From the NCBI GenBank assembly GCA_050114555.1, contig JASFSF010000001.1, positions 1 to 42,442 of the forward strand: 42,442 nt of DNA, given 5' to 3'. Origin of the DNA: Ignavibacteria bacterium. GTDB lineage: Bacteria; Bacteroidota; Ignavibacteria; Ignavibacteriales; Ignavibacteriaceae. Shown one piece after another: positions 5,543 to 23,700 of this stretch (position 1 is its first letter; every line of letters starts with the position of its first letter). Position numbers and translations under genes: made by a program. The notes under the pieces are model-generated. The model was not told the origin of the DNA. It saw only the letters and a list, made by a program, of their open reading frames with translations, and searched no databases.

Positions 5543-5549
5543 AAAGTAA

Positions 5550-5563: not shown

Positions 5564-5570
5564 CTACCAT

Positions 5571-5738: not shown

Positions 5739-5773
5739 TTATTCTCCTTTGTTTCTAAACCAACATAACCAAG

Positions 5774-5785
5774 CACCCAAAGGTG
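5774..5785 (-). terminator. short hairpin CACC-UUUG-GGUG within the conserved element GTAGACACCTTYGGGTG
   Basis: About 20 nt with one mismatch, shared with the 5550 hairpin region including flanking TCTAC. Lies between 5793..5975 and 5571..5738. Confidence 0.4.
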
Positions 5786-5792
5786 TCTACTA

Positions 5793-5975
5793 TTACTCTT
5801 TAAAAACAACTGGTAAAATTATAAAAGTTTCAAAACAAGGAAGAGCATTATATGCTTCTTCCATAGAGTCAAACGGATCAAATTTAATAACTTTACCCCA
5901 TAAAGATGTTTTAGTTGGCCTTTCAAGCATTCCTTTTTCATCAATTTGATAAATTACATACTTTAAATACTGCAT
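5793..5975 (-). CDS. hypothetical protein (60 aa)
   Basis: Track ORF. Confidence 0.55.
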   Translation of the reverse strand: MQYLKYVIYQIDEKGMLERPTKTSLWGKVIKFDPFDSMEEAYNALPCFETFIILPVVFKE

Positions 5976-5998
5976 AATAATTTCTTTAATTCCGTTAA

Positions 5999-6319
5999 TT
6001 ATTTTTCATTACTTCTAAAACCGACACAACCAAGTACTTTGCCTGAAGCATCTTTCTTTACAGAACCGGGTGCTACAACGTCTATACGGTCTTTTGGAAT
6101 ACAATTCAGGGCTAAGGCAGGAACAATATAGATCGTGCCTTCTAGAGGCTCTGGGAGACCTCTGATAGATGATACTTTAGTATGCATAATAGGAGCACCT
6201 GCATGCATACGAGTAACTTTAGTACTAGTACGTACTAGGATAGGTTTAGAACTAGGTTTAAGCACCAATCCTGAAGTAAGTTCATGGATTTCATGTTTTG
6301 TAAGATTTACATATCTCAT
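5999..6319 (-). CDS. conserved hypothetical protein (106 aa; NLTKHEI ... GLPEP ... IYIVPALA ... RIDVVAPG ... GCVGF)
   Basis: Track ORF; AAGGGGAA RBS. The motif string recalls a widespread phage/bacterial family of unknown function. Confidence 0.65.
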   Translation of the reverse strand: MRYVNLTKHEIHELTSGLVLKPSSKPILVRTSTKVTRMHAGAPIMHTKVSSIRGLPEPLEGTIYIVPALALNCIPKDRIDVVAPGSVKKDASGKVLGCVGFRSNEK

Positions 6320-6330
6320 ATTAATTCCCC

Positions 6331-6477
6331 TTAAAGTTCCGTCTTTTTAAATTGGTGTAGATTACACTTAACACAATAACGTTCTTGATAAAATATCATT
6401 GATCCATACTTATCTGATAGACGTTTTGTAACTTCCCATTTAGACCATTCATGTTTACATGAAAAGAAATTAAACAT
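6331..6477 (-). CDS. 48-aa Cys/His-rich (zinc-ribbon-like) protein
   Basis: Hand translation MFNFFSCKHEWSKWEV...YCVKCNLHQFKKTEL; TAATG coupling to the upstream gene. Confidence 0.5.
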   Translation of the reverse strand: MFNFFSCKHEWSKWEVTKRLSDKYGSMIFYQERYCVKCNLHQFKKTEL

Positions 6478-6725
6478 TAGTTCTCCTTAAATAGTTTTTT
6501 ATACCAAGGTACAATTTCTGTTTTTTCTTCAATAGGTTTTTCTTTAAACCATTTAGCTTCAGGCCCACAAGAATTTTTGTCATCTCTTAAAATATTACAA
6601 TAATAATTTGTAACTTCTGTTTTAAATACCTCTGCTCCTGTAACTTTACTTATAGTAAGATTATTAGGAGCAAAACAAACATGCATGTATCCATCATAAT
6701 ATTCACAATCTACACAGAATTTCAT
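6477..6725 (-). CDS. Cys-rich small protein (82 aa; CVDC ... C ... C ... C)
   Basis: Track ORF. TAATG coupling to the HD-domain gene. Confidence 0.65.
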   Translation of the reverse strand: MKFCVDCEYYDGYMHVCFAPNNLTISKVTGAEVFKTEVTNYYCNILRDDKNSCGPEAKWFKEKPIEEKTEIVPWYKKLFKEN

Positions 6726-7156
6726 TATCTTTCCTTAATATTTTTAAGATAGTCGTATGCTTTTGCATATTTCTCAAGACGTTTAAAGTCTTTTTCGGTA
6801 AGACCTTTCAATCTAGTAATATCACTATTATGACAAAGATCTGCCATTTTAACTACACAAGCAATATCAAAATAAGCAATACTTCTGATGTACTCTTCAT
6901 AAGTATTACTACTATGATGAGTTAAAATCAGAATTTGCTGAATTTGTAGTTGAGTAAACCCTTCATCTAGTAACATTTTAGCTGTCCAATCAGTATCCTC
7001 AAGAAGATCATGAAGTACTGCTACGATCATATATTCTTCACCGTAGTCTTTGACTGCGTTCATTACATAAAGGCAATGAAGGATATAAGGATTACCTCCT
7101 TTATCATATTTTCCTTCAAATGCTTGTGCTGCGATACGAATAGCTTTAGATAACAT
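6725..7156 (-). CDS. HD-domain (p)ppGpp/(p)ppApp pyrophosphohydrolase-like protein (SpoT/Mesh1-type small alarmone hydrolase)
   Basis: GGNPYILHCLYV, AVLHDLLEDT and VKMADLCHN match the RelA/SpoT hydrolase (HD_4) motif order. AAGGAGA RBS. Confidence 0.7.
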   Translation of the reverse strand: MLSKAIRIAAQAFEGKYDKGGNPYILHCLYVMNAVKDYGEEYMIVAVLHDLLEDTDWTAKMLLDEGFTQLQIQQILILTHHSSNTYEEYIRSIAYFDIACVVKMADLCHNSDITRLKGLTEKDFKRLEKYAKAYDYLKNIKER

Positions 7157-7165
7157 CGATTCTCC

Positions 7166-8917
7166 TTATTTAAGAAGCCAAGGAGTGATATTCATTTCCT
7201 TGCCTTTATTAAGTTCTTTGATCTTACCTTCAAGTTTAACAAATCTAGTATAGCCTTCATCAGTAAGACCAATAGATTTGAAATAGTTGAGCAAAATAGA
7301 ACGACGATTATCATAGATTTCTTGCATCCATTCAGCAGCAAGATCTTTAGTCTTACGAGCCTCTACGACTGTTACAATAGCCGCATCATGGATAGAGATA
7401 TTCCAATCAAGAGGTTTCACAATACGATTCATACCTTGACTATCTGCATTATGAATGAGTCCTGTTACAAAATATCTCTTAAATTGACTCAAATCAGGGA
7501 CTTTATGCGTTGTAGTATGACGAATAACACTGAGTTTATCAGACTCTGTATTATATACGATATACTGCTTTGTAGTATCACCTACATGCTTATAGCGATT
7601 ACACTCAACAGTGAACTTCTCATCAGCTACATGAAGCATCATATGCTCTTTAGGAGTACAGTGGTTAATGATAATGTCTTTAAACTCATTAGCAATTGCA
7701 AATTTACCGTGAGTTTGATGGAATTTCATCAACTTAACTTGGTCAGAAGTCCAAGTAAGACCTGCTTTCTTCCAGAGTTTTGTGATAGGAGCACTAGATC
7801 CAAATACATATGGAGTTTGTGCTTTCTTGATATGAAGTTTGCTGAGACCGTCAATTTCCCACATATAGCGAGTATGATCAACATAATCACTATGGCCAAG
7901 AAGCAGGCCAATAATCGTCATATTCGATGCCGAGAAGTCTACTTCAATTGGAGTGGTAAATTGATGAGTATTATCTGCATACCAAGCATCAAGATCAGCA
8001 TACATACGCTCAAGCCAGATGTTTTCAAAGAGATCATCTACATCTTCAAGATCATCAATAGCCATTTTACGATCAGCATATGCTTGTTTCCCCATCTGGA
8101 ATTTCTTCTCGATATCTCCTTCGAATCCATAAACTAGTTCTGCAATAAACAGATAAGTATCGTATAGAATATCTTCGTTATCTACAGTAACTGGAGGAGC
8201 TACAACAAGAGCTCTAGCCATCTTATTTGCGATAGGATTAAACACTGTTTTAAGTGCTTGATAAATTGCTCTACCGCGACTATCGAGAGTAAGCTTACCA
8301 AGATTGTATTCTTGATCAGGATTTTGCATAACTTCAAGCACTACATGACGAATAATGGATTCATAGTCATATGCACCATCGACACGAAGAGAATAACCAA
8401 GTTCTTCTTCAAGTCTAGTCATTGCTTTTACTGACACTTGAATAATTTGCTTACGATATTTCTTAAGCATATCAATATCATATTTGAATTTATGAGAACC
8501 AGAGCGAGAGAAACCCATACGAACTAGACCTGTCTTTTGAATACCGGAAGGAAGCTTTACATCAGTAGCTCCTGCAAGAAAGTTAGGAGAACTAGTGATA
8601 GGTTTATAGTGCTCCATCTTAGTGTTAACAATGATTTGATCGAGTTCTTCTTGAGAATATTTTTCCAGAAGTTTTGCTTTATTGAGTTGAATATCTGCAT
8701 AATTGTAGCGAACAGAAGTCGTAATCCATTTATCTTCAGCAAGACGAAGAATCATACGATTACCTTCATTCTGAGAGCTAAACTGATCTAGCCAATAAGG
8801 TAAACTAGTTGCTCCTGCATTATTTGCAAAGCGTCTCCACAAGCTAGTAAGCATACGTTCAGCAACTTCATAGTCGCTATCCTTGTAGTTTTCGATTTCA
8901 GGCAATTCAAGTACCAT
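7166..8917 (-). CDS. T7-like single-subunit RNA polymerase, minimal form (583 aa)
   Basis: LDSRGRAIY (T/DxxGR), EVDFSASNMTIIGLL (motif A Asp), KLHIKKAQTPYVFGSS (motif B K..K..[Y/F]G), ISIHDAAIV (motif C HD). AAGGAGA RBS. Confidence 0.75.
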   Translation of the reverse strand: MVLELPEIENYKDSDYEVAERMLTSLWRRFANNAGATSLPYWLDQFSSQNEGNRMILRLAEDKWITTSVRYNYADIQLNKAKLLEKYSQEELDQIIVNTKMEHYKPITSSPNFLAGATDVKLPSGIQKTGLVRMGFSRSGSHKFKYDIDMLKKYRKQIIQVSVKAMTRLEEELGYSLRVDGAYDYESIIRHVVLEVMQNPDQEYNLGKLTLDSRGRAIYQALKTVFNPIANKMARALVVAPPVTVDNEDILYDTYLFIAELVYGFEGDIEKKFQMGKQAYADRKMAIDDLEDVDDLFENIWLERMYADLDAWYADNTHQFTTPIEVDFSASNMTIIGLLLGHSDYVDHTRYMWEIDGLSKLHIKKAQTPYVFGSSAPITKLWKKAGLTWTSDQVKLMKFHQTHGKFAIANEFKDIIINHCTPKEHMMLHVADEKFTVECNRYKHVGDTTKQYIVYNTESDKLSVIRHTTTHKVPDLSQFKRYFVTGLIHNADSQGMNRIVKPLDWNISIHDAAIVTVVEARKTKDLAAEWMQEIYDNRRSILLNYFKSIGLTDEGYTRFVKLEGKIKELNKGKEMNITPWLLK

Positions 8918-8963
8918 ATTCTATCTCCTTAAAAATTTTAACAGTAGTAAAGGTAGGTGAAAC

Positions 8964-9602
8964 CTACCGAGAAAGCTCTCCTTTGAGGAGTTGTAGCTGT
9001 TTTGCTTTATTAAGCCGTTCAACCGCACCTGTCCAAGCTTGCTCTTCTTGACGCTGAGTAGCTTCGTAGTCTGCATAGAGGCCAAGTTTGCTTGCAATGA
9101 TATTAATTGCTACATTAAGCTTTTCTACATCTGCGGAAATGCCTTGTTCAGCACGATCACATGCTTCTTGATCAAGTACAACGATTTCACCGTCTGTATG
9201 AGTAATTGTAGTTGCTTCACGAAGATACGGAAGACTACCATAACTAGTGACTACCATATCACGAAGATCACGATCAAAGAGTTCATAAAGATCTAGATCG
9301 TCTTTAGAACTAGGGGTAAGCAGATCACGAACATCACGCTTAGCAAACTGTAGATTAGTGGCAATAGCTACCATTTTCTCTACATTATCTTCAAACTTGT
9401 AACCAGTCATGATATCACGATTATATGCGGCTGAGATTTGATCGATAATGGTATCGAGTACTTTTGCATCTTGTTCACAAAGGAAGCGTTGAGCACCTGT
9501 ATCTGTGTTAAGCATAGCCAAATCTTTTTGTTCACGTTTAGCTTGTGCAGCTGCTTTGATTGCGTTCATACGCTCTGTAATTGCTTGTGTTCTTTCTGTC
9601 AT
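8964..9602 (-). CDS. hypothetical protein (212 aa), immediately upstream of the RNAP gene
   Basis: Track ORF; AAAGGA RBS; GC visibly higher than the small accessory genes. Confidence 0.7.
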   Translation of the reverse strand: MTERTQAITERMNAIKAAAQAKREQKDLAMLNTDTGAQRFLCEQDAKVLDTIIDQISAAYNRDIMTGYKFEDNVEKMVAIATNLQFAKRDVRDLLTPSSKDDLDLYELFDRDLRDMVVTSYGSLPYLREATTITHTDGEIVVLDQEACDRAEQGISADVEKLNVAINIIASKLGLYADYEATQRQEEQAWTGAVERLNKAKQLQLLKGELSR

Positions 9603-9648
9603 GTATGTCCTTTAAGTTGTTGATGTTTTGGAGTCTAGCTCCATTGAA

Positions 9649-9662
9649 CCACTCGAAAGTGG
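9649..9662 (-). terminator. hairpin CCACU-UUCG-AGUGG
   Basis: 5-bp stem with a UUCG loop on the minus strand, between 9665..9877 and 8964..9602. A second small dyad GGAG..CTCC lies at 9631-9643. Confidence 0.45.
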
Positions 9663-9664
9663 CT

Positions 9665-9877
9665 CTAAGAACTAGGTTGATTAACTTGCTTTTCAATGAT
9701 ATAATCAAATCCTTGATCTTGTTCATAACTTCTACGTTCATTAACAAATTTCATGGCTTCAAGATACGTTCCTTCAAATACGAGAGTTCGTTTTTCTGAA
9801 TTAATACGGTTAAAATGGTTTTTACCATAATAAGTCTTTTTACGATAAACTTTACTAGGTGTTTTTGCTAATGACAT
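9665..9877 (-). CDS. hypothetical basic protein (70 aa)
   Basis: Track ORF; AAGGAG RBS. Confidence 0.65.
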   Translation of the reverse strand: MSLAKTPSKVYRKKTYYGKNHFNRINSEKRTLVFEGTYLEAMKFVNERRSYEQDQGFDYIIEKQVNQPSS

Positions 9878-9897
9878 TTATACTCCTTATAATTGTA

Positions 9898-9993
9898 TTA
9901 TTTATCAAATAATGCTGTTGTAGATGCTAATACTACAAGTAATAGAAACCATACAGGTGCCATATCCCAAAAGAGGAACTTAATTACTTTCAT
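9898..9993 (-). CDS. 31-aa single-TM micropeptide (MKVIKFLFWDMAPVWFLLLVVLASTTALFDK)
   Basis: Hand translation; TAATG coupling to the upstream gene. Confidence 0.4.
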   Translation of the reverse strand: MKVIKFLFWDMAPVWFLLLVVLASTTALFDK

Positions 9994-10217
9994 TAATTCA
10001 TAGCTTCATTTAGCTCTTCTAAAGATGTGAAACATACTTCCATATCACATTCGTCAAATACATATTCAACAATACTATATGGCGGAGTAGTTTCACTATT
10101 TTTAACTTTTTCATAATAGTCAATAGCTACTACTACTCTAGAACCTATATCTGTACACATCCATTTTGAAACAGGTGTATAGAATATTTCACCAATTTTA
10201 AAATCAGATAATTTCAT
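9993..10217 (-). CDS. hypothetical protein (74 aa)
   Basis: Track ORF; TAATG coupling. Confidence 0.6.
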   Translation of the reverse strand: MKLSDFKIGEIFYTPVSKWMCTDIGSRVVVAIDYYEKVKNSETTPPYSIVEYVFDECDMEVCFTSLEELNEAMN

Positions 10218-10438
10218 TAATTCATAGCCCTCTCTAGATCATCTAGTGTAAACCATTTGCCGTCATTACGGCTTTTTACATCATTGATTTCTTCAAGAGT
10301 ATCTTTAAGATCATCTTGTAGAGTCACCTCTTGCTTAATTGCCCAAATATTGGTCTTTTCACCAATAAACTTGAATAGTCTTTTGATACTAGCCCAAGCC
10401 AATACAAGCACTACTACTACTACGATAAGCTCTACCAC
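10217..10438 (-). CDS. N-terminally anchored small protein (73 aa), GTG start
   Basis: Track ORF. TM segment LIVVVVVLVLAWASI; AGGA lies 6 nt upstream of the GTG. Confidence 0.55.
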   Translation of the reverse strand: MVELIVVVVVLVLAWASIKRLFKFIGEKTNIWAIKQEVTLQDDLKDTLEEINDVKSRNDGKWFTLDDLERAMN

Positions 10439-10716
10439 TATTTATCCTTTACAACTTTAAGATGTTTAATACCAAGTGCTTTCTCAATTTCAGAGATAGT
10501 TAGAATAGTTTCAGTTACTTCTTTTTGGTATTTCACTCTAGGATCAAGATTAACACCTGTTTGATAATGTTTTTCATCATTAATAGTATCAATTACAACT
10601 ATTCTACCGTTACTAAATTGAAGATAGTACCCAATATCCCATGCAGATTTTCTGATTTTATATCCTTCCAATAAAGCTACACAAGCTTCTTCATATGTAC
10701 ATTCTACAAATTTCAC
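10438..10716 (-). CDS. DUF2829-like protein (fold family of the Thoeris anti-defence sponge Tad2), GTG start
   Basis: The N-terminal pattern F-x-E-x-x-x-E-A-x-x-A-L-x-x-G-x-K-I-R-K-x-x-W-x-x-G-x-Y-L resembles the DUF2829 signature. AAAGGA RBS. Confidence 0.4.
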   Translation of the reverse strand: MKFVECTYEEACVALLEGYKIRKSAWDIGYYLQFSNGRIVVIDTINDEKHYQTGVNLDPRVKYQKEVTETILTISEIEKALGIKHLKVVKDK

Positions 10717-10860
10717 ATTTATCCTTTAGATGAATTAAGTCATTGAGACTTTAGAGAATGCTATTCGTCTCTAGATAAACTAGTAGATTACTTAGCATTC
10801 CAAAAATCGCAAGTAAATGCTGATAGGTCATCACTCCGTATCAACACATAATACAAAAGA

Positions 10861-10871
10861 GGCCGAAGGCC
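10861..10871 (-). terminator. hairpin GGCC-UUC-GGCC followed by UCUUUUGUAUUAU
   Basis: Starts 5 nt after the stop of 10876..11472. A 145-nt gap follows before the next gene. Confidence 0.55.
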
Positions 10872-10875
10872 AATA

Positions 10876-11472
10876 TTAGTTATTCTTTAAATCATAACAT
10901 GTTACAGGAGTAGCTTCACAATACCAAAGATATCCAGATTTAAATGGTTGTTTTTTACCCGATTTTGAAACATGACCCTTTGCCCAATAGTCTATCCATT
11001 TTGCGGTGTTTTTACCCTCTACCCAACAAAGTACAGGATTTTCGCTGCTTACTGTTTCGTACCACTCTTTTGGTGCTGGTTTGGCGTTAGGCCAAGAACG
11101 AACATTATCGCCATCTCTGCTATGACAAATAAATTGCTTACCATCTTTTGTCATTGAGATAAATTCACGCTTTACTGCTTTTGTTTCGTCTGTGTTCCAC
11201 ACCATAATCTCTTCACCTTGTTCCGGTTGCCGCTCTTCGCATGTGCCATTCGTTCGGATGAACAGGTCGGCGTCAACTTCCTCATACTCACCATACGGGT
11301 CCAGATAAATTTTGTTTGCTTCAAGCGATTTGTCGAAATTAATAAACAGTTGCTCGAACTTAGTGTATTCAATACCTGACCTTCCATACCAATTAGCCCC
11401 ACGTGCAATAGCGATCTCTTGCACCTTACGACTTTGCTCAGGTGTAACTCTCATTACAATGTTCGTTTTCAT
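10876..11472 (-). CDS. hypothetical protein (198 aa)
   Basis: Track ORF trimmed to the ATG at 11472: ATGA overlap with the upstream stop, and AAAGGAA RBS. Confidence 0.65.
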   Translation of the reverse strand: MKTNIVMRVTPEQSRKVQEIAIARGANWYGRSGIEYTKFEQLFINFDKSLEANKIYLDPYGEYEEVDADLFIRTNGTCEERQPEQGEEIMVWNTDETKAVKREFISMTKDGKQFICHSRDGDNVRSWPNAKPAPKEWYETVSSENPVLCWVEGKNTAKWIDYWAKGHVSKSGKKQPFKSGYLWYCEATPVTCYDLKNN

Positions 11473-11720
11473 TTGTATTCCTTTACTAGATCTAGTAGTT
11501 CTTGTGTCCAATCAATATATACAGATGAATCCCTATGGTTACGTCCAGCAGCGTCAATACAGATTCTATCACCTATTTTTGGTGAATTATACAAAATATC
11601 TTTAATATAGTATCTGCAAGGCCAGCCAAAATCGATAATAGATCCATATTCTGAAGTATTATCAACAACTACTTTTTTAGGGAAAATTCTTCCATTTTCG
11701 TCATATGCATTTACAGTCAT
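11469..11720 (-). CDS. hypothetical protein (83 aa)
   Basis: Track ORF; AAAGGAGAA RBS. Confidence 0.65.
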   Translation of the reverse strand: MTVNAYDENGRIFPKKVVVDNTSEYGSIIDFGWPCRYYIKDILYNSPKIGDRICIDAAGRNHRDSSVYIDWTQELLDLVKEYK

Positions 11721-12119
11721 TTATTCTCCTTTATATTCAAGCATTCTGCTTTCATCTATCTTTTTAAGCTGTTGAGCAAGCTTGTGACATTCATTAACCA
11801 TATAATCTAGATCTCTGAATTCACCTTCGCCCCAAAACCTGATTTTGTCACCAGCATGTGCAGCATCAAATCCAATAAACCATGTATCATCAGATTTAAC
11901 ATTTGGCAAAAAGTTGTTAGTATAAGTTACGCCTCCATGTACTTCTAATGATTCAATTAAATCATCATAATCAAAAGCAAGATAACAAGGATGAGTATTA
12001 GGTACTTCTACATACCCGCAATAATGAGAGTTATTAACCCAAATTACATGAGCTTTGTAACCATTTGTTTCGAAGTGAGATTCAGGCATTGCGGTTAATG
12101 CGACTTGTTTTTCTTTCAT
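11721..12119 (-). CDS. conserved phage protein with CGYV ... VHGGVTY ... GFDAAHAGD motifs (132 aa)
   Basis: Track ORF; AAGGAG RBS. The His/Asp motif string suggests a metal site; function unknown. Confidence 0.6.
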   Translation of the reverse strand: MKEKQVALTAMPESHFETNGYKAHVIWVNNSHYCGYVEVPNTHPCYLAFDYDDLIESLEVHGGVTYTNNFLPNVKSDDTWFIGFDAAHAGDKIRFWGEGEFRDLDYMVNECHKLAQQLKKIDESRMLEYKGE

Positions 12120-12335
12120 TTATTGCTCCTTATTCATAAGTTTAGCTGCTTCCATGAATTGACTTTGTTTATCCAGAATCTGTTTAAAGTCTTCTGGCAT
12201 AAAACGATGCTTTCCAAAGGTAATCGTACCATCTTCATTAAAGACTACGTTAATATCTTCACTGTAGCATCCAACTTCAGGGTAACCTTCTTCACAGTAA
12301 TAAACTGTCGGTACTGTAGTTTTGTAAGTTAACAT
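12120..12335 (-). CDS. hypothetical protein (71 aa)
   Basis: Track ORF; junction TAAGGAGATAGAAAATG identical to that of 12347..12553. Confidence 0.65.
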   Translation of the reverse strand: MLTYKTTVPTVYYCEEGYPEVGCYSEDINVVFNEDGTITFGKHRFMPEDFKQILDKQSQFMEAAKLMNKEQ

Positions 12336-12346
12336 TTTCTATCTCC

Positions 12347-12553
12347 TTATTTATCTTCCATGATATGTTCAACATAACTCATTGACGGAACTTTAATGTC
12401 GAGATATTCCGTTGTAGTATCGTACATATACAGAATATAATCATCAGTGTCTTCTTTTTTATATAAAGCACGAACTTCCCAATGATAAACATTGTGATCT
12501 TTTACTTTGTAATATGTGCTTCCATTTAGTGTAATTACATTTGGTGCTTTCAT
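12347..12553 (-). CDS. hypothetical protein (68 aa), first gene of the leftward arm
   Basis: Track ORF; TAAGGAGATAGAAAATG. Confidence 0.65.
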   Translation of the reverse strand: MKAPNVITLNGSTYYKVKDHNVYHWEVRALYKKEDTDDYILYMYDTTTEYLDIKVPSMSYVEHIMEDK

Positions 12554-12631
12554 TTTCTATCTCCTTAATTTAATTACATACAAATCAAACGAAATGTACG
12601 TTCATGTAATGCGATAACCACAATACGAAAG

Positions 12632-12644
12632 ACACCGAAGGTGT
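12632..12644 (-). terminator. hairpin ACACC-GAA-GGTGT (plus-strand reading) in the leader upstream of the first leftward gene
   Basis: 5-bp stem with a 3-nt loop, 79 nt upstream of the ATG at 12553. Could be an attenuator/terminator or a hairpin-type promoter (see findings). Confidence 0.35.
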
Positions 12645-12687
12645 AACAAGAAATAACAATTGAAAATATGGATAAAATAAGATAATC

Positions 12688-12720
12688 ACTGTCAACTGAG
12701 AGTATAACAACTGTCAACTG
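12688..12720. repeat. two direct copies of ACTGTCAACTG (12688-12698, 12710-12720), 22-bp period
   Basis: Read directly. Each copy contains TTGACA on the minus strand. Candidate operator or -35 elements. Confidence 0.6.
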
Positions 12721-12738
12721 GTAGTTTACGATGTGTAA

Positions 12739-13218: not shown

Positions 13219-13758
13219 ATGACACAACACAACTTAAACGAAGCTGAGAAAAGGAATATTTCTATAACACTTGATGCAGGTGATGAAATTAGCCTTACCA
13301 GAAATAACAGAAATAGCAATGTCCCAAATTATTTTAAGATAGGAAACGGAAATATGAGTAAAAATAAACCAGCAAGTATTAATCTGATAAAAGAACTAGT
13401 TATGCTTAGTAAACCAGCACAACAATTAATTGATGTAATTATGGATGGTATGCATTATGTAGAAGATCTATATGGAACAGACTTAAATGGTAAATTTATC
13501 GGTGGTATGACTTTTGTTGTAGAAGTTAGGAAGAAAGATCATAAATACTTACTTGATAAAGGACTTCCAGAGCTATTTGAGAAAGATTTGGTTCGTAGAG
13601 TTAGTCGAGGTAAATATATGATTAATCCTCATGCTTTACAAACTGTATTTCATAAACAGAAAGAAGTATGGGATAAAGCCAGTAATCCTAAACAGAAGGA
13701 TGAAGAAGTAGAACTCGTCGCGCCTGATAAGGTGCAGAGTTCGGATGATGAAGACTGA
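13219..13758 (+). CDS. putative winged-helix DNA-binding protein (179 aa) with an acidic C-terminal tail
   Basis: Track ORF trimmed to the ATG at 13219 (RBS AAGGAAAGG). C-terminal LVRRVSRGKYMINPHAL looks like a wing motif. The assignment is weak. Confidence 0.35.
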   Translation: MTQHNLNEAEKRNISITLDAGDEISLTRNNRNSNVPNYFKIGNGNMSKNKPASINLIKELVMLSKPAQQLIDVIMDGMHYVEDLYGTDLNGKFIGGMTFVVEVRKKDHKYLLDKGLPELFEKDLVRRVSRGKYMINPHALQTVFHKQKEVWDKASNPKQKDEEVELVAPDKVQSSDDED

Positions 13759-13920
13759 GCTATATAACAAGATAAGAGCAACACTAGATCCTATAGCAAA
13801 CTACTTAATGCTATCCAATACTAAACACACCACAACACAAGAGATACCGAAGGTAATCGATAATGGTTGGATATGATGAACACATGAAAATCTTCCCAAT
13901 TTGATTGGCCTATCTTTAAA

Positions 13921-13956
13921 AGTGTGGGAAGTGTGGAAGAGATGAGTGTGGGAGAA
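13921..13956. repeat. left cluster of GTGTGGG boxes (AGTGTGGGAA, GTGTGGAAGA, AGAGATGAGTGTGGGAGAA)
   Basis: Read directly; related copies at 15121-15156 and 15208-15229 flank the other side of the cassette. Confidence 0.7.
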
Positions 13957-13974
13957 AAAAATAAAGGGTAAGAA

Positions 13975-13988
13975 CCAGCCGAAGCTAG
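13975..13988 (-). terminator. intrinsic terminator CUAGC-UUCG-GCUGG followed by a U-rich tract
   Basis: The stem includes the TAG stop of 13985..14164 and one G-U pair. Followed by TTCTTACCCTTTATTTTTTT on the minus strand. Confidence 0.6.
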
Positions 13989-14164
13989 TCCTCAAAAAGC
14001 CATTCTTCTGTATAGTATTTGTCTGTATTATACAGTTTATTCTCGTTTGAGAATTGGGCATCTTTTTCAGCACCTTCTTTAGTTTTATGTATTGCTGAAA
14101 CTCTAGGTTTTTGTCCCTCTTCTTTGTATATTACTACAAAGACCGTTTTTTGTTTAGTTACCAT
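13985..14164 (-). CDS. small protein (59 aa, MVTKQKTVFVVIYKEEGQKPRVSAIHKTKEGAEKDAQF...)
   Basis: Hand translation, 60 codons. The start overlaps the upstream stop (ATGGTAACTAA). Confidence 0.55.
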   Translation of the reverse strand: MVTKQKTVFVVIYKEEGQKPRVSAIHKTKEGAEKDAQFSNENKLYNTDKYYTEEWLFED

Positions 14165-14246
14165 AGTTCACCAGAGTTGCGATATGACATGTAATTGCAG
14201 CCATTGCTACAATATAAGTAATTGTAACAACATTTCTAATACACAT
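14154..14246 (-). CDS. 30-aa hydrophobic micropeptide (MCIRNVVTITYIVAMAAITCHIATLVNYGN)
   Basis: Hand translation verified codon by codon; 1-nt spacer from the upstream stop. Confidence 0.4.
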   Translation of the reverse strand: MCIRNVVTITYIVAMAAITCHIATLVNYGN

Positions 14247-14247
14247 G

Positions 14248-14343
14248 CTAGTCTCCATAAACAACCAGAGCAGCAACAATGCGCTCCGGTACTTGAGGTT
14301 TCTGCTTTGTATCTGCTTTGACTTTGATGTTGTAACGTTTCAT
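14248..14343 (-). CDS. 31-aa basic micropeptide (MKRYNIKVKADTKQKPQVPERIVAALVVYGD)
   Basis: Hand translation; the ATG directly abuts the upstream stop (TAAATG). Confidence 0.4.
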   Translation of the reverse strand: MKRYNIKVKADTKQKPQVPERIVAALVVYGD

Positions 14344-14571
14344 TTAAAACTCCATGTTGATTTTTACATTGCTGTGCTGAATGCTCACTAGATTACGGAG
14401 CAAAGACTTGGTTTCGGAAAGAGGCATATGGATGTTTTTGGCAAGCATGACAATGCTATGCCGTTTACCATAGATGTTACAACAGAGTTGGCCATCAGAG
14501 CCGTAGTAGGCTCTGATAGACGGATACCGCTGGATGAGATCAATTGCAGTCATGAGCTTTTTTCCATTCAT
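14344..14571 (-). CDS. hypothetical protein (about 69-75 aa; start at 14571 or 14553)
   Basis: Track ORF 14344..14622 trimmed to internal ATGs that overlap the end of the upstream gene. Confidence 0.5.
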   Translation of the reverse strand: MNGKKLMTAIDLIQRYPSIRAYYGSDGQLCCNIYGKRHSIVMLAKNIHMPLSETKSLLRNLVSIQHSNVKINMEF

Positions 14572-14806
14572 TGAAGGCTTTGAGTGTTTTGATACCGCTA
14601 AGTTCTTTACGGATATCGTCATAGGCTTTCTGGTAGCCAGCAGCAGTAAATGCTACTGAACCAGCTTTGAACTGCACACCTTTGAGCGTATAGTGCTTGC
14701 TCTTAAGGTATGCAGGAATATCATTGGCACTCATTTGAGTAGCCAAGAATGTACCGAGGTTGACGGATTGTTCGACAGTTGCTTTGATGCGTTGAATTTG
14801 TGACAT
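14540..14806 (-). CDS. hypothetical protein (88 aa)
   Basis: Track ORF; TAATG coupling with 14806..15039. Confidence 0.6.
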   Translation of the reverse strand: MSQIQRIKATVEQSVNLGTFLATQMSANDIPAYLKSKHYTLKGVQFKAGSVAFTAAGYQKAYDDIRKELSGIKTLKAFNEWKKAHDCN

Positions 14807-15039
14807 TAGAGTGCTCCGAGGAGTGTTTCTTGAGTCTTAGTGACTTCATCATGCTTGATATCTTTTGTTTTGATATCAGAGATGTAATCGGCAGTAGTTT
14901 GAGCTGAAGAGATTTCCAGCTTGAGAGCCATGTTTTTATCAAGACCACGCATAGTCTTTGTAGAGGAGAGCTCTTTGATGAGAAACTTGAGTGCGAAGTA
15001 AGCTGCTACTGCAACGATTGCAATGATGACGATTTCCAT
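14806..15039 (-). CDS. N-terminally anchored membrane protein (77 aa)
   Basis: Track ORF. TM segment IVIIAIVAVAAYFALKFLI. First gene of the higher-GC cassette. Confidence 0.55.
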   Translation of the reverse strand: MEIVIIAIVAVAAYFALKFLIKELSSTKTMRGLDKNMALKLEISSAQTTADYISDIKTKDIKHDEVTKTQETLLGAL

Positions 15040-15120
15040 AGGTGGAACCCTTTATGATGTGATGATTGGTACTTGCGATACCTCGCTATACAAAAGAGAG
15101 CGAAGCTCTAGAGCTATGGC

Positions 15121-15229
15121 AGAGATGAGCCTGTTACTTGATAGTGTGTGGGAAAATGCTTGGAAAAAAGAATGCTTAGATTTAGACTACGGGGGGGTAG
15201 TCACTTCGAGATGCTAGAGTGTGGGGGAA
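15121..15229. repeat. right cluster of boxes: AGAGATGAG (15121-15129), AGTGTGTGGGAAAA (15143-15156), GAGATGCTAGAGTGTGGGGGAA (15208-15229)
   Basis: Read directly; same orientation as the left cluster at 13921-13956. Confidence 0.7.
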
Positions 15230-15254
15230 CTGTCCTCACCACAAAAATTATATT

Positions 15255-15311: not shown

Positions 15312-15362
15312 TTTTATTTATGTTTAAGCCCGTATTAGTTATACTTTGTAATAAGGATGTTA

Positions 15363-15593
15363 ATGACCAATAGAAAAATTTATAATATATTTACACCTAG
15401 CTATGCTACCAAACCACTAGATTTATATATTATTAAAAATAATAGACCATTTGAGTTATATATAAATATTATTAATAATGTAATATACCTATATCTAGAT
15501 AGGGAAAATATGCTAGAATATAATGAACATCTAGATGGTATACCATTAGATAAAGATGAAGCAAGCAAATTATATCCGGAGTATTTTATATGA
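15363..15593 (+). CDS. YPEYFI-tail paralog 1 (76 aa; alternative ATG at 15357)
   Basis: Track ORF. AAGGA lies about 5 nt upstream of the ATG at 15363. C-terminus EASKLYPEYFI. Confidence 0.6.
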   Translation: MTNRKIYNIFTPSYATKPLDLYIIKNNRPFELYINIINNVIYLYLDRENMLEYNEHLDGIPLDKDEASKLYPEYFI

Positions 15594-15811
15594 ATCAGTA
15601 TATATTTATAGAAAATGATGTACATCTAGTTTATGATATTCAACGACTAGAAGCAGATAAGTTTACCGAACCATTTAAGTATAGAGGTTCATGCGAATTA
15701 ACATATTTAAATAGAAACGGATCAGGTTTTAGTAAACGTATAGAAATAGAAAATCCTGATATAATGAGTTATGAAGAAGCGTTAGACAAGTACCCTGAAT
15801 ATTTTATATAA
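15590..15811 (+). CDS. YPEYFI-tail paralog 2 (73 aa)
   Basis: Track ORF; ATGA overlap. C-terminus SYEEALDKYPEYFI. Confidence 0.65.
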   Translation: MNQYIFIENDVHLVYDIQRLEADKFTEPFKYRGSCELTYLNRNGSGFSKRIEIENPDIMSYEEALDKYPEYFI

Positions 15812-15821
15812 AGGAAGTAAT

Positions 15822-16031
15822 ATGTATGATTTTGGTAAAACAATTTATGATGATAGAGAATTTATGGAAGCTATGAAATCCTATACTATGTATAAAACAG
15901 AAGAGGAAGTATTATTAGAATATTATAAATGTCCAGATAATGATGGTACTATATGGACACAAATAATGTTAGCAGGTATACTAGGTAGTAGAGAAGAAGC
16001 GATAAATAAATATCCAGAGGTATTCATATGA
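15822..16031 (+). CDS. YPEYFI-tail paralog 3 (69 aa)
   Basis: Track ORF. C-terminus SREEAINKYPEVFI. Confidence 0.65.
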   Translation: MYDFGKTIYDDREFMEAMKSYTMYKTEEEVLLEYYKCPDNDGTIWTQIMLAGILGSREEAINKYPEVFI

Positions 16032-16225
16032 AAGATGATCAACTAGTTTGGTATTATGAGGGTAAAGTATGCGAAGTGATACATTGTAATTGGAATGGAT
16101 TAGACCAGCATTGGTTTGTACAACTAGTTACAGGATATGGTAGAGGAGATATGTTTGTAAGTGATACAAATGAGTCAATGACTTATGAAGAAATGAAAGA
16201 ACGATATCCAGAATATCTAATATAA
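16028..16225 (+). CDS. YPEYFI-tail paralog 4 (65 aa)
   Basis: Track ORF; ATGA overlap. C-terminus TYEEMKERYPEYLI. Confidence 0.65.
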   Translation: MKDDQLVWYYEGKVCEVIHCNWNGLDQHWFVQLVTGYGRGDMFVSDTNESMTYEEMKERYPEYLI

Positions 16226-18141: not shown

Positions 18142-18352
18142 AGGAAATATTATGCAAAATAAATATATTGGTAAAGTTATGGATATTCCTGGTATAGGAG
18201 AAGTAACTATTATTGAAGAATTGGATGATTGTTATGTAGTATCTGCAATTCGCTCAGAAGATGAACCGGGAGATAACTTCCGGATAGCTGGAAGAAATGG
18301 TAGAAGTTCTTGGAATGTGCTTTATATAGATAAGAAGGTAATTGATGGCTAA
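18134..18352 (+). CDS. hypothetical protein (72 aa) wedged between the TerS-like and TerL genes
   Basis: Track ORF (ATG at 18134). Both of its junctions carry the same 18-nt string AGGTRATTGATGGCTAAA. Confidence 0.55.
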   Translation: MAKGNIMQNKYIGKVMDIPGIGEVTIIEELDDCYVVSAIRSEDEPGDNFRIAGRNGRSSWNVLYIDKKVIDG

Positions 18353-20069
18353 AAAATTTAAAAAAGGCTATTTCAATGTAGATCATGCCTTAGATTCAAT
18401 GGATATGGAATTCACTAACTATACCCCTAGTTTAGAGGCATTAGAGTTCTTCGCCATTATTAAAGTATTTTATGGTGAAGATTTTGAAATACCTAATAGT
18501 AAGTTTCATTATTTTATTGTAGATATGCTATTTGGTAATGTGGATGAAAAAGATTTTCCTTATAGTGATGAAATAAACGCAAATATCCCTATTAATCCTA
18601 GCCGTATTGGTGTAATTGCTGCTCGTGGTAGTGCCAAATCTACTATTACTACTACTTTTTATCCAATATATTGTGCAATAAAAGGGGAAACTCCTCTTAT
18701 CAAAAATATTAGTCATATGCTTATTTTAAGTGATAGCCAACAAGGTGGTGCTAGAGATCAAGCTAAACTACTTGCAGGTGAGTTTGAGAAAAGTGTATTT
18801 GCTAAAGAGTATTTCGAAAAAATGAGGTTTACTGAGAGTGAAGCAGAACTAGTGAGATCCGGCAGTGGCCCTATTGAAAAAAGACATATATTAATAAAAT
18901 TTAAGGGGGCTATGACCGGGGGGATTCGTTCTGGTTCTAGAAATCCTATAACTAGAGACCGATATGCAATTATTATTGGGGATGACGTTATTAAAAATGA
19001 AGCAGATGCTTATTCAGAAACTATCATGAAAAATGTTAAAACTGCATTATTCTCAGATGCTTTGAATGCAATGAGAGGTAAAAATACACAACTAGTATTG
19101 ATTAATACACCATTCCGTAAAGCTGATCCTATTTATACTGCCTTAGAAAGTGGAGTATTTACTCCTCTTGCTGCTCCTATATGTAAGAAAATTTATGAAG
19201 ATATGCCTAAAGAAGAGTTTAAAGGTTTATGGACTGCTATGCATGATTATGATGCAGTTATGGAACGATATTTGAATGCTATTGGTAATCATACGGCTAG
19301 AGAATTCAGTCAAGAGTTGATGCTGAGAGTATCTAGCGAAGAAGATAAATTAGTACAAGATGATCAGATACAATGGTATGATAGAAGTGTGATTAAAAAG
19401 AATTTAGATTACTATAATTTATACGCTACTACTGACTATACTGCAAGTAATGACTTAAAAGGGGACTTTAGTTGTACGATGTTGTGGGCTGTAAGTAATA
19501 ATAATGATTGGTTTATGCTAGATTTAAGTATAAAAAAGCAAACAATTACTGATCAATATAAGCCATTATTTAAAATGATCAATCAATGGGGATCTAAAAA
19601 TTCTAGGCATGTATATGTAGGTGTTGAGATTGACGGACAGCAGCAATTAAATTTGCATACATTAAAAAAGATGATGTTAGAGCATAATACTTTCTTTAGT
19701 TTTGCTAGGCAGATTGGGGCAAGTATAACACAGGAAGGAATTAGGAGAAAAGGTAAAGGAAATAAACATGAACATTTCATGAGAGTACACCCTTTATTTC
19801 AAGAACATAAAGTTTATTTACCTGAAGATTTGAAAAATACACCTGATATGAAAGAATTATTAGAAGAGTTAAACTATGTGACATATTCAGGAATTGCTGC
19901 TAAGCATGATGATGCTATAGATTGCATAAGTATGATTTCTAGTTTAGATGTGTTGTTACCTAGCGCAGAAAGCAATAAAGAATTTCTAGAAGACCATTCG
20001 AATAGCAGTATATGGGAGATGGATTTTGAGGATAATGAGTTTAGTAACAATAAAAGTACAATTTTTTAG
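18345..20069 (+). CDS. terL: terminase large subunit
   Basis: Walker A-like GVIAARGSAKST, Walker B-like YAIIIGDDV, C-terminal nuclease-type AAKHDDAIDC. 574 aa. Confidence 0.8.
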   Translation: MAKKFKKGYFNVDHALDSMDMEFTNYTPSLEALEFFAIIKVFYGEDFEIPNSKFHYFIVDMLFGNVDEKDFPYSDEINANIPINPSRIGVIAARGSAKSTITTTFYPIYCAIKGETPLIKNISHMLILSDSQQGGARDQAKLLAGEFEKSVFAKEYFEKMRFTESEAELVRSGSGPIEKRHILIKFKGAMTGGIRSGSRNPITRDRYAIIIGDDVIKNEADAYSETIMKNVKTALFSDALNAMRGKNTQLVLINTPFRKADPIYTALESGVFTPLAAPICKKIYEDMPKEEFKGLWTAMHDYDAVMERYLNAIGNHTAREFSQELMLRVSSEEDKLVQDDQIQWYDRSVIKKNLDYYNLYATTDYTASNDLKGDFSCTMLWAVSNNNDWFMLDLSIKKQTITDQYKPLFKMINQWGSKNSRHVYVGVEIDGQQQLNLHTLKKMMLEHNTFFSFARQIGASITQEGIRRKGKGNKHEHFMRVHPLFQEHKVYLPEDLKNTPDMKELLEELNYVTYSGIAAKHDDAIDCISMISSLDVLLPSAESNKEFLEDHSNSSIWEMDFEDNEFSNNKSTIF

Positions 20070-20783: not shown

Positions 20784-23700
20784 GAAGATTAAGTAGTTTA
20801 CATTCAGTCGATACTTTTATCGAACGTAAAATCAGTAATGATAAATATCAAGATATAGTTATTGTAGCTGATAATATAGATGCAATTACTGCTTTATTAG
20901 CTTCTATTGAAGAAATCGAAGCAGTTAATGCTTCCATTACAGATATTATTAATGTTAGTGATAATATTGAAGCAGTTATAACAACAAATGCTAGTATAGA
21001 AGTTATTACTACTTTAGCAGATAACTTAGATAGCATTAATACTATTATTACAGATGTTGTTCCTCATTTAAGTGAAATTTTAGAAGCCTCGACTAATGCA
21101 ACTAATGCTCAACTAAGTGCATGGGAAGCAGAAGCCGAAAAAATGACTGCTAATAGTTATGCTACAGAAACAATAGATACTCCTGTTAAAATTTATACTT
21201 CTAATGGAGATGGTACATTTACAGCTACTGATACTGATCCTATAGAATATTCAGCATTGCATTATGAGTATTATGCAAGTAGTTCAGCAGATGCAGCAGC
21301 TATATCTGAAAGTGCTGCTGCTAATAGTGAAAGTGCTGCCGCTGGATCTGCAATAGACGCAAGTAATTCCGCAAATGCTGCTGCTATTTCTGCAGGCAAT
21401 GCAAGTGCTTATGCAATTGAGACTGAAGGATACCGTGATGATGCAGCTATTAGTGAGGCTAATGCGTCTATAAGTGAATTAAATGCGCTTGATAGTGCTA
21501 ATGCAGCTGCTCTCAGTGAATCAAATGCAGCTACAAGTGAATCTAATGCCGCTGACTGGTTTGATCAATTTAATGATATTTATCTTGGACCATTTGCAGA
21601 TGCACCAATTGTGGATAATGATGGTGATCCTCTGCAAGAGGGAATGCTCTACTGGCATACCGTACAGAAACAACTCTTCGTATGGAATGCTACAGCTCTT
21701 ATTTGGGAAGCTGCTTATTTCTCGGGTTCTGGTGACATCGTTACTCTAAATGATGAACAGGAACTGTATAACAAGAAGCTTGACGATATTTCTAATGAAA
21801 TCGGAGCTGACCATCTCCACTTTAAAGTACGTAATACTAGTGGAGATGATATTTCTATCGGTACAATCGTTATAGGTACAGGTACTCAAACTGGTACAGA
21901 TTATATCGAAATTGAGCCTCAGTCATCTCAAACACAAGTAGCAATCGGTATAACACATAAGTTGCTACACGATAATGATGTCGGTATTGTTACTAATACA
22001 GGTGTTATTGCTGATGTCGATACTCATCTATGGCCGATCAATACAATCCTGTATCCTGACGGTAGCGGCTGGCTTACCGATACGAAGCCAACTGTAGGAT
22101 TTTATCAGGCATGTGCTTATGTACTTAATCAGGATGCTGTAAATGGATCTCTGATGGTAGAGTTTAGTGAGCCTGTCTTTACGGCTTCCACCACTCAAGC
22201 AGGGTATGTTCAACTAGTGGATGATCTAGTTAGTGATGATAATACTAAGGCACTCACTGCTGCTCAGGGTAAAGTATTAAAAGATCAACAGGATTTGCAT
22301 GATGGTTACATCACAGCTTTGCAAGCAATTAATACAGATACACAAGAACCTACCGGTTTCTTAAATCGTACAGATTCTACTATTAGTTTTGATGATGTTA
22401 ATCGCAGACTTACATTAGCACCAGCGGTAACTAGTTTTGATGTTTACATTGAAGGAATTAAACAGACTATTACTACAACAAAGACATTTGATATTCTGGA
22501 TGTTGAAGGTTTACACTTTATCTATTTAACTCCTGAAGGTACTATTGATGCTATAGTTAATGATTGGGACTCTGAAGTTCTTCTTAAAGAAAATGCGTAT
22601 ATTTGTGTTATTTATTGGGATGCTACTAACAGTAAACACATCTACTTTGGAGATGAGCGGCATGGTACAGTGATGGACTGGGCTACCCATGAGCACTTTC
22701 ATACAGCTTGGGGAGCTCAGTTTGTAAATGGATTAGCACTTTCTGATATAATTGCTGATGGTGATGGTAGTTCTAATACACATATTCAGTGTTCTGTAGA
22801 TAGTGGACTAATCCGTGATGAAGACCTAGCTCATTATATTGTTGACGATGATCCGCAAGATCTCTACCCTATTGCTCAAATTCCGCTATACTATAGATCT
22901 GGAGCCTCTGGAGACTGGAGAAAGCTAGATTCTACCGGTTACTTGGTAACTACTGCTGGAACTGGACGGGCTGCTTACAATCAATGGACTGGTTCAACAT
23001 GGCAACTTACTGAGGTAACCAATACTAAGTTTTTGCTTACCCATTTGTATGCTACTAATGACATAGAGAACCCTATTGTTGGTATCGTAGGTCAGGCAGA
23101 ATATGATACTGTTAGTACAGCACGAGATGGAGCTCATAATGAGATTGGGCAGGTGATCGATCTGTTGTTCGAAGAACTAGTTCCCATTGCTACTATTATC
23201 GTGCAGACTGCAGATGCATACACGAATGCAACGCAATCCCGTATCGTTGAAGATGAGGATGGCAACGCCTATGTTGACTGGCGGACCATTCAGATCTCTC
23301 CGTCGGCCTCTCTTGGTGACCACAATATTCTAGCCGGACGCTCTGACCCGAATGCACATCCTGCGTCTGCTATTAGTTTTAGTAATGTTACCAGTGGACT
23401 AGTCGCGGATGACGTTCAGGCTGCTATCGATGAGGTTGAGGATCGACTGGATACCGCTGAAAGCAAGCTCTCTGGTATCGAGGAGAACGCTAAGGATGAT
23501 CAGGTGGCTAGTGAGGTGCCGTTCACTCCAGCTGGGGGTTTATCCAGCACAGATGTTCAGGCTGCCGTTGAGGAACTTGACTCCGAGAAGCAAGAACTAC
23601 TTGTTAGTGGTACTAATATCAAGACTATCAACAGTGAGTCTCTGCTGGGCTCTGGAGATATCGTAATCAGCAGTGGCGATCCGTTTACCACTACCGATGT

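Follow-up and report, generated by a model that had tools for sequence, protein, structure and literature searches.

An apparent N4-type first early transcription unit in a metagenomic podophage contig of the Alteromonas phage AD45 lineage

Introduction

The virion RNA polymerase (vRNAP) of coliphage N4 uses promoters that span positions -17 to +1 and hold a DNA hairpin centered at -11. Recognition takes place on the template strand, where A or G at -11, G at -10, G at -8, and C at +1 are read, -10G pairs with -12A, and a contact is made at -9C. Hairpins also accompany most of nine early start sites that were mapped in Pseudomonas phage LUZ7 by ONT-cappable-seq. Here, we analyze a six-gene minus-strand cassette (13985-15039) in contig JASFSF010000001.1, a stretch of 42,442 bases (hereafter, the window) that is one entire metagenomic contig of an N4-like podophage. 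The cassette appears to be the first early transcription unit of a phage of the Alteromonas phage AD45 lineage, apparently transcribed from a vRNAP DNA-hairpin promoter, and we give this reading a probability of about 0.7.

The nearest isolate to the window is Alteromonas phage vB_AmaP_AD45-P1 (AD45-P1 below), which encodes a split vRNAP homologue. In the available portion of its published description, this homologue is reported as seen in virions, the RNAPII gene is given as not found in AD45 phages, and the boxes, C7, and hairpin elements treated below are not mentioned. The corresponding portion of the LUZ7 description likewise contains no box element.

The preliminary description of the cassette had taken it either for a self-contained inserted module (a moron or mobile cassette) bracketed by direct repeats or for a unit under a dedicated promoter motif. 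Morons of lambdoid phages are autonomous promoter-gene-terminator insertions. The cassette resembles them as a self-contained promoter-to-terminator unit of atypical base composition; it differs in that its gene set is ancestral at this position and belongs to an early phage operon, and in that its predicted promoter is phage-specific rather than of the host sigma-70 type.

Genomic context of the cassette

The portal protein of the window (30569-32533) is 62% identical to that of AD45-P1, and several hundred N4-like phages match it more weakly. The large terminase subunit, TerL (18342-20069), also matches N4-like phages, and the plus strand carries TerL, the major head protein, and other virion genes in the N4 order. 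Positions 1-12553 are filled by minus-strand genes, including that of a 583-amino acid (aa) protein common to AD45-P1. A 132-aa protein encoded at 11721-12119 on the minus strand matches phrog_2164 and is homologous to gp4, an early protein of N4 (E = 2e-17, 39% identity over 117 aa); through it, the minus-strand region can be equated with the early region of N4. Given this gene order, the cassette occupies the divergent junction where TerL-proximal late genes meet the early region. At the DNA level, a similarity search against 50,697 phage records gave no match.

A predicted hairpin promoter and a terminator delimit the cassette

The transcription unit comprises the following features.

15088-15109, minus strand: predicted vRNAP hairpin promoter, stem-loop AGAGC-TTC-GCTCT at 15097-15109 followed by CTTTTGTAT; the plus strand is the template
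14806-15039, minus strand: gene 1, 77 aa, with an N-terminal transmembrane helix and then a charged tail; GC content at third codon positions (GC3) 0.42
14540-14806, minus strand: gene 2, 88 aa, member of a small uncharacterized family
14344-14553, minus strand: gene 3, 69 aa from an internal ATG; GC3 0.53
14248-14343, minus strand: gene 4, 31 aa, basic peptide
14154-14246, minus strand: gene 5, 30 aa, hydrophobic peptide; GC3 0.23, typical of the window
13985-14164, minus strand: gene 6, 59 aa; GC3 0.27; no counterpart in the close relative L003
13957-13994, minus strand: intrinsic terminator closing the operon, with an 11-pair stem and UUCG loop at 13969-13994, then CCC and the T-rich tail TTTATTTTTTT

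The plus strand at 15097-15109 reads AGAGC-GAA-GCTCT, with ATACAAAAG before it, so that the stem has 5 bp and the template-strand loop is 5'-GAA-3'. The template there reads C-AAAAG-stem and carries -12A, -11A, -10G, -9C, and -8G, matching all five N4 vRNAP determinant positions. Transcription likely starts at the G at position 15091, 52 nt upstream of the first ATG; this putative start is 12 nt from the loop center, compared with 11 nt in N4 and 13-14 nt in LUZ7, where it was determined by cappable sequencing. On the non-template strand, the window promoter is AGAGC-TTC-GCTCT-CTTTTG, and the N4 promoters, read from the N4 genome, are GTTGC-TTC-GCAAC-TTATGG (P1), AAGAAGC-TCC-GCTTCTT-TTGG (P2), and AAGCTGC-TCC-GCAGCTT-TTGG (P3), located upstream of gp1, gp2, and gp15, respectively. 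Folded as DNA, the cassette hairpin reaches -3.2 kcal/mol versus -3.7 kcal/mol for N4 P1.

The window was scanned with the pattern stem5-TTC-stem5 followed by CTTTCGTAT, which gave six matches versus 0.73 in shuffled sequences. Four of the six are convincing (15109-15088, 12644-12623, 10872-10851, and the degenerate 13856-13835), and all four are intergenic, on the minus strand, and upstream of minus-strand genes. Besides the cassette promoter, they are as follows.

12623-12644, minus strand: second hairpin promoter, ACACC-TTC-GGTGT with CTTTCGTAT, ahead of the early operon that starts at 12553 and includes the N4 gp4 homologue (11721-12119)
10851-10872, minus strand: third hairpin promoter, TGGCC-TTC-GGCCT with CTTTTGTAT
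13835-13856, minus strand: degenerate copy, TTACC-TTC-GGTAT with CTCTTGTGT, aligning with promoter d of L003

The activity of the degenerate copy is doubtful because it points into an antisense gene. L003 is the Joint Genome Institute (JGI) contig Ga0307418_1006099 (3668 bp), which is 83% identical in nucleotide sequence over window positions 14202-15140 and carries four further hairpin promoters within 3.7 kb. When the eight copies from the window and L003 were aligned, 92.5% of the stem cells paired and three of the five pairs showed compensatory change, compared with 25-57% pairing in slid controls. The loop, the closing pair, and the flank CTTTYGTAT were invariant while the stems varied.

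Such short GC-closed hairpins could instead be terminators or other RNA elements, with host RNA polymerase transcribing the cassette. A consensus terminator scan does list 15097-15109 and 12632-12644 as terminator-like, and sigma-70-like hexamers are present in the region; however, the sigma-70-like sites number 13, versus 13.2 in shuffles. The hairpins, with 5 bp and about -3 kcal/mol as DNA, stand 50-140 nt upstream of operon start codons, and those of L003 lie downstream of a separate strong terminator. Conservation of the CTTTYGTAT flank and the loop alongside covarying stems is, moreover, the pattern of the N4 promoters. We regard the terminator explanation as highly improbable.

The true terminator is found at the other end of the cassette, where the preliminary description had also placed one: an 81-nt stretch around the 13969-13994 stem-loop on the minus strand folds to -18.2 kcal/mol, and the terminator is 94% identical to L003 positions 2578-2611. 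With the predicted hairpin promoter at its head and this terminator at its end, the cassette forms one promoter-to-terminator unit.

A separate hairpin, GGTAGGT-GAA-ACCTACC at 8952-8968, between the genes for a 212-aa and the 583-aa protein, has a perfect 7-bp stem and a GAA loop. We dropped it as a promoter of the above type since its flank mismatches the consensus; it could be a terminator or a divergent promoter.

The six genes of the cassette

All six coupled open reading frames (ORFs) noted earlier at 13985-15039 are present, overlapping or abutting, with GGAG-type ribosome-binding sites readable at most of them. Independent gene calls on other contigs gave products of 77, 88, 69, and 31 aa. 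Compared with their L003 copies, gene 1 is 90% identical with a ratio of nonsynonymous to synonymous change (pN/pS) of 0.16, gene 2 has a pN/pS of 0.10, gene 3 is 69% identical with 0.29, and gene 4 is 78% identical with 0.18. These values of 0.10-0.29 in the four testable genes indicate purifying selection and argue that they are real genes, the 31-aa one included. The gene 5 counterpart in L003 encodes 27 aa and is directly followed by the L003 terminator, and window positions 13990-14201 have no counterpart there. Two plus-strand ORFs (13745-13876 and 15023-15217) were rejected as genes, as they overlie the regulatory elements and have no support.

Relatives of the products are few. AD45-P1 gp031 has the same size and architecture as the gene 1 product, with similarity confined to the transmembrane segment, and this was the only match, a weak one, in a direct comparison with the AD45-P1 early proteins. 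An exhaustive HMMER search found relatives of the gene 2 product with 65-87 aa and 46-48% identity, whereas tblastn of the 88-aa protein against the phage collection found none. A gene 3 homologue in another contig, L170, follows an 88-aa-family gene, and the motif RAYYGSD is common to both gene 3 proteins. None of the six proteins resembles N4 gp1-gp14 or matches PHROG or PADLOC, and Pfam returned only subthreshold noise; no tRNA or Rfam element was found in the cassette region. Single-sequence AlphaFold models of the 88-aa and 69-aa proteins had mean confidence (pLDDT) values of 60 and 56, too poor for a fold search. Scans of IMG/VR with the 88-aa protein, TerL, and two promoter patterns yielded chance matches only. 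The 88-aa protein also matches 23 repeats of a 3493-aa DUF5649-repeat protein (P0003) and nine stretches of a 789-aa protein (P0006); these matches are probably compositional or repeat-driven, and the one to the 3493-aa protein was not retained as homology.

By position, the products would be immediate-early, and "host takeover" is a reasonable provisional label. The preliminary description had suggested a membrane-acting exclusion, toxin-antitoxin, or host-takeover set. The last of these fits the head of an early region, whereas no toxin, antitoxin, or defense family was found among the six proteins with PADLOC, PHROG, or Pfam.

Conserved boxes and a C-run at the cassette boundaries

The direct repeats flanking the cassette resolved into CACAC boxes, accompanied upstream by a run of cytosines.

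15219-15229, minus strand: distal CACAC box, TTCCCCCACAC, the core of the third repeat described earlier (15208-15229)
15185-15202, minus strand: C-run box, GACTAC-CCCCCCC-GTAGTC, with C7 at 15191-15197, the sole C7 run in the window
15144-15156, minus strand: proximal CACAC box, TTTTCCCACACAC, the core of the second repeat described earlier (15121-15156)
13921-13956, minus strand: three-box CACAC cluster, CTCCCACAC, TTCCACAC, and TTCCCACAC, directly after the terminator T-run and corresponding to the first repeat described earlier

The restriction of the motif to the two flanks held throughout the window: GAGATG-N(0-30)-GTGTGGG occurs three times, at these places only, and never in shuffles. 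AGTGTGGG occurs three times versus 0.38 expected, CCCACAC occurs four times, always in the two cassette flanks and on the minus strand, and 13921-13956 is the only cluster of at least three YACAC boxes (0.13 expected). Read in the direction of early transcription, the constant core of the repeat is a pyrimidine-rich lead-in followed by CCCACAC (YCCCACAC, generally YACAC). GAGATG was dropped as part of the element, being absent from modules b and d of L003.

Their proposed role as brackets of a mobile element did not stand, for the core recurs in relatives after terminators or before promoters, as well as at the left ends of phages N4, G7C, and KP8. In L003, it follows the preceding terminator's T-run ahead of hairpin promoters b and c, and a copy also stands ahead of promoter d, there with no T-run. 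The first early gene of AD45-P1 has a terminator with CTCACACTCACACC after it; in the syntenic contig L172, the T-run of the first operon is followed by CGCTACAC, CGCTACAC, and CACTACAC; and in contig L173, a T-run is followed by CACACCACACCACACTTCACAC. A T-run and then two to four YACAC boxes is thus the arrangement in the window and in these four relatives, in which the boxes follow early-operon terminators or precede hairpin promoters.

The C-run also recurs. It is found at the late/early junction as ACACCCCCCCGGTAT in L172 and GGTACCCCCCCTTAC in AD45-P1, and about 30 nt from the left end as TACCCCCCCGGTA in G7C and KP8, with the N4 C-run placed likewise. Among 175 loci, TACCCCCCC was confined to G7C, KP8, the AD45-P1 junction, and the twin contig of the window, apart from one chance match. 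The N4 left end reads TGGTGGGG-CTACAC-CCCT-TACAC...C9...GTACAC-GT-TACAC and passes directly into the P1 hairpin, and the first 100 nt of G7C and KP8 contain the same boxes and TACCCCCCCGGTA; the CTACAC/TTACAC boxes upstream of the C-run at these left ends correspond to the distal box of the window. In the window, a box (15219-15227), C7 (15191-15197), a second box (15144-15152), and the hairpin (15097-15109) follow one another on the same strand. Positions 15088-15229 therefore reproduce the N4 left-end elements in order and orientation: box, C-run, box, and first hairpin promoter. We therefore presume that the physical end of the genome lies nearby. In the N4-like left-end plan, the DNA end falls about 10 nt upstream of the first box; as a lead only, TGGTGAGG at 15234-15241 (minus strand) resembles the TGGTGGGG of N4.

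This correspondence raises the possibility that the boxes and C-run are genome-end signals acting in terminase recognition, end formation, or DNA ejection, with the cassette inside a terminal repeat of about 1.3 kb that the two clusters bracket. In N4, G7C, and KP8, box, C-run, box, and P1 all lie within about 100 nt of the physical left end, the experimentally mapped ends of the N4-like phage IME11 start with GTGGCTGGGGCTACAC, and the window element sits exactly where the ends of N4 would fall, between TerL-proximal late genes and early genes. However, the 404-bp terminal repeat of KP8 ends inside gp1 with no box at its inner boundary, so we abandoned the idea of boxes as inner terminal-repeat boundaries. 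L003, furthermore, has three box clusters in 3.7 kb, each before a promoter and without a C-run, so most box clusters cannot be ends. Taken as a whole, the genome-end explanation seems unlikely.

The CACAC boxes might also be operators for a phage DNA-binding protein that switches early operons, the candidates being the 69-aa cassette protein and the winged-helix-like product of the following gene.

13219-13758, plus strand: antisense gene outside the cassette operon, 179 aa from ATG, between two promoter copies

The boxes do look like operators in being short direct repeats, in two to four copies, clustered at regulatory-region boundaries, and the antisense gene, with its weak winged-helix matches, adjoins the box cluster in both the window and L003. 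Yet L172 and L173 have boxes with no antisense gene called there, and in N4, G7C, and KP8 the boxes occur only at the extreme left end. The distance from box to promoter also varies, from 0 nt in N4 to about 30 to about 85 nt in the window lineage, and the poor model of the 69-aa protein (pLDDT 56) shows no DNA-binding fold. An operator role is accordingly improbable. We likewise discarded the boxes as T7-like or N4 RNAPII middle promoters, as the N4 middle promoters are AT-rich and no RNAPII gene was found in AD45 phages.

We tentatively propose, at well below even odds, that the YACAC boxes and TAC-C7 constitute a cis-element conserved across N4-like phages, coliphage N4 and the marine AD45-like phages alike. 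It might act at the leading genome end, for example in end formation, in ejection, or when the injected polymerase is loaded onto the first hairpin promoter. Among AD45-like phages, it might have been copied together with the promoter to every early-operon boundary, where it might also serve as a homology patch for early-module swaps. We met no description of the YACAC boxes and TAC-C7 run as a conserved N4-like element. If functional, boxes and a C-run common to the N4 left end and to distant phages would bear on the cutting, injection, or first transcription of N4-type genomes.

Ancestral position and composition of the cassette

Contig L172 (7479 bp, 33% GC) is syntenic with the window, with the following gene order (percentages are identities).

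L172, late side: TerL (51%), 246-aa protein (43%), T5orf172 protein, divergent junction
L172, early side: transmembrane protein, 88-aa-family gene (47%), terminator and boxes, 73-aa protein (41%), 206-aa protein (45%), 579-aa protein (57%)

The 47% identity of its 88-aa-family gene is typical of the neighbors (43-57%), and its two first-operon genes have ordinary GC3 values (0.18 and 0.30). Contig L170 carries an 88-aa-family gene followed by a 69-aa-family gene, and L173 carries an 81-aa family member, a 61-aa gene, and then a terminator and boxes. The L172 synteny and the gene pairs of L170 and L173 indicate an ancestral gene set at this position and speak against a moron. When the block between the repeats was sought in relatives, no empty site was found: L172 retains the 88-aa-family gene at the site, and L003 retains the cassette.

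The composition of this copy is nevertheless atypical in part. Its raised GC content, reported earlier, held up to a point: the cassette has 40.0% GC versus 33.6% for the window (the 92.5th percentile of equal-sized windows), with 26-28% in the right flank and 31-38% in the left, but raw GC is not unique to it, as the 21-25 kb region reaches 40-46%. Codon composition was more discriminating, with GC3 of 0.40-0.53 in the first four genes (77, 88, 69, and 31 aa) compared with a mean of 0.19 (SD 0.07) in 73 other ORFs. Coding-strand GC skew is negative in the same four genes, and all 18 other window genes tabulated have a positive skew; in composition, the 30-aa and 59-aa genes are unremarkable. 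Contigs L003, L170, L171, and L173 have 38-42% GC. A separate JGI contig of 1396 bp shows the same junction between the cassette and its low-GC right flank, making a chimeric assembly at that point less likely.

The neighbors of the cassette differ in L003 on both sides. Homology to L003 starts at 15140, a few bases past the proximal box, ends at the terminator T-run, and resumes at the next box cluster. Because homology between relatives breaks at box boundaries, modules evidently have been exchanged there. From the foreign GC3 and from the L003 homology amid different neighbors, we infer that the promoter and first four genes probably arose by homologous replacement of the resident first operon with an allele from a relative of about 40% GC, via conserved boundary sequences.

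A foreign moron or mobile cassette, with the direct repeats as insertion scars or target sites, would account for the elevated GC3 and reversed GC skew of four genes, for a block with its own promoter and terminator, and for the recurrence of the same block amid different neighbors in L003. It does not account for the 88-aa-family gene of L172 in the same first-operon position with ordinary divergence and GC3, nor for the L170 and L173 gene pairs of the same families. The repeats are lineage-wide conserved boxes, found also at the N4 left end, rather than insertion duplications, and the block neither contains nor adjoins a gene for an integrase, transposase, or nuclease. We thus judge an insertion to be distinctly unlikely; of the module proposed earlier, the self-contained transcription unit stands and the insertion does not.

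Comparison with described systems

Under the reading that we favor, a virion-packaged, T7-like RNA polymerase injected with the DNA would recognize the hairpin at 15088-15109. Using the plus strand as template, it would read leftward across the six small, translationally coupled genes as far as the intrinsic terminator (13969-13994), where transcription would end. The cassette genes, two of which encode membrane peptides, would be immediate-early and, by position, of the host-takeover type, and the boxes would mark the boundaries of promoter-to-terminator modules. The earlier alternative of a unit under a dedicated promoter motif came close to this; the promoter predicted here, however, is the hairpin at 15088-15109, which had gone unseen.

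The likeness to N4 P1-P3 extends to a stem of 5-7 bp, a 3-nt G-R-A loop on the template strand, and a closing C-G pair, and the cassette promoter adds -8G and -9C and an A-rich spacer to the putative start. In both phages, several promoter copies occur, each standing before a short operon of very small genes where the early region begins, and CACAC boxes and a C-run lie upstream of the first promoter. The boxes of the window recur between operons, whereas those of N4 occur only at the end. LUZ7 likewise has small early genes behind many hairpin promoters, whose stems measure 4 bp or more, whose 3-nt loop is conserved, and whose transcripts start at a G 13-14 nt from the hairpin center; it belongs to a different genus, is GC-rich, and has mapped starts, whereas those of the window are predicted from sequence. 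AD45-P1 shares the TAC-C7 box at the late/early divergent junction, the terminator followed by CTCACACTCACACC and then a 77-aa transmembrane protein, and the split vRNAP homologue, but the portal identity is only 62% and its hairpins are less regular. On this evidence, the cassette is most likely an N4-type early transcription unit, of an already known kind, and not a foreign insertion.

Several observations weigh against the assignment or its parts. No virion RNA polymerase gene was found on the 42-kb contig, which stops before that region, so a vRNAP of the window phage is assumed from its lineage; an open frame of at least 482 aa at 40997-42442 (plus strand) runs past the right contig end and, by tblastn, matched nothing in the phage collection. 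The putative start lies 12 nt from the loop center, one more than the 11 nt of N4, and the flank reads CTTTYGTAT in place of TTTTGG. The promoters at 12632-12644 and 10860-10872 have C rather than G at -8, the hairpins of the distant relative L172 have 4-nt TAAC loops rather than 3-nt ones, and the terminator scan flags short hairpins too, a few T's following them. The promoters at 12623-12644 and 10851-10872 also have no CACAC boxes, so the boxes cannot be a required part of the promoter. For DNA comparison, a single close relative, L003 (with L004), was available, being the only true relative found in one metagenome pattern scan, and the raised GC3 could have a cause other than transfer. Finally, according to the AD45-P1 paper, terminal repeats of 437 bp lie at the ends of the record, away from the junction. 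In that record (NC_021532.1), a 434-bp end overlap lies inside a gene split across the record ends (L177 1-434 and the end of L178), both coding sequences are flagged incomplete, and the genes fall into the N4 order once the record is rotated. The record may represent a circular assembly in rotated form, its true ends lying at the late/early junction. Mid-record, at about 34.56 kb (L168 8560-8590), AD45-P1 has an N4-type C7 box and a small TTC-loop hairpin.

The analysis supplies a testable map of an immediate-early unit (promoter, six genes, terminator, and upstream boxes) in an uncultured N4-like lineage, with the six proteins as candidates for host takeover. With it, hairpin promoters of the N4 type would also reach the AD45 group, for which the original description left the transcription strategy open.

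Neighboring genes and minor observations

The 179-aa antisense protein (13219-13758) and a 168-aa antisense protein of L003 (2670-3176, minus strand) are 56% identical over the C-terminal ~60 aa of the former and are otherwise not shared. Both end in the acidic tail KQKDEEVELVAP.KVQSSDDED, and the L003 protein has weak winged-helix matches (AbiEi_4, E = 2e-4). The antisense genes lie on different sides of the CACAC cluster in the window and in L003. In the intergenic region upstream of the window gene (12682-12735, minus strand), two copies of the direct repeat CAGTTGACAGT.(G/A)TTAT lie about 25 nt apart; the repeat is also conserved in L003 (3187-3246) and looks operator-like.

Near the left contig end (302-495, minus strand), tRNA-Leu(TAA) and tRNA-Ile(TAT) genes are found; both tRNAs read codons that end in A, consistent with the very low GC3 of most genes. 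The late strand opens with four tandem small genes (15357-16225, plus strand) encoding proteins of 78, 73, 69, and 65 aa that share a C-terminal motif (KLYPEYFI, KYPEYFI, KYPEVFI, and RYPEYLI) and appear to form a paralogous array; they are very AT-rich, with 23-28% GC in the two genes measured. A GC-rich island at 21000-25300 (plus strand; up to 46% GC) contains a 1061-aa tail-fiber-like gene and the next two genes, with GC3 of 0.35-0.40; it is a second compositionally atypical block and plausibly an exchanged host-range module.

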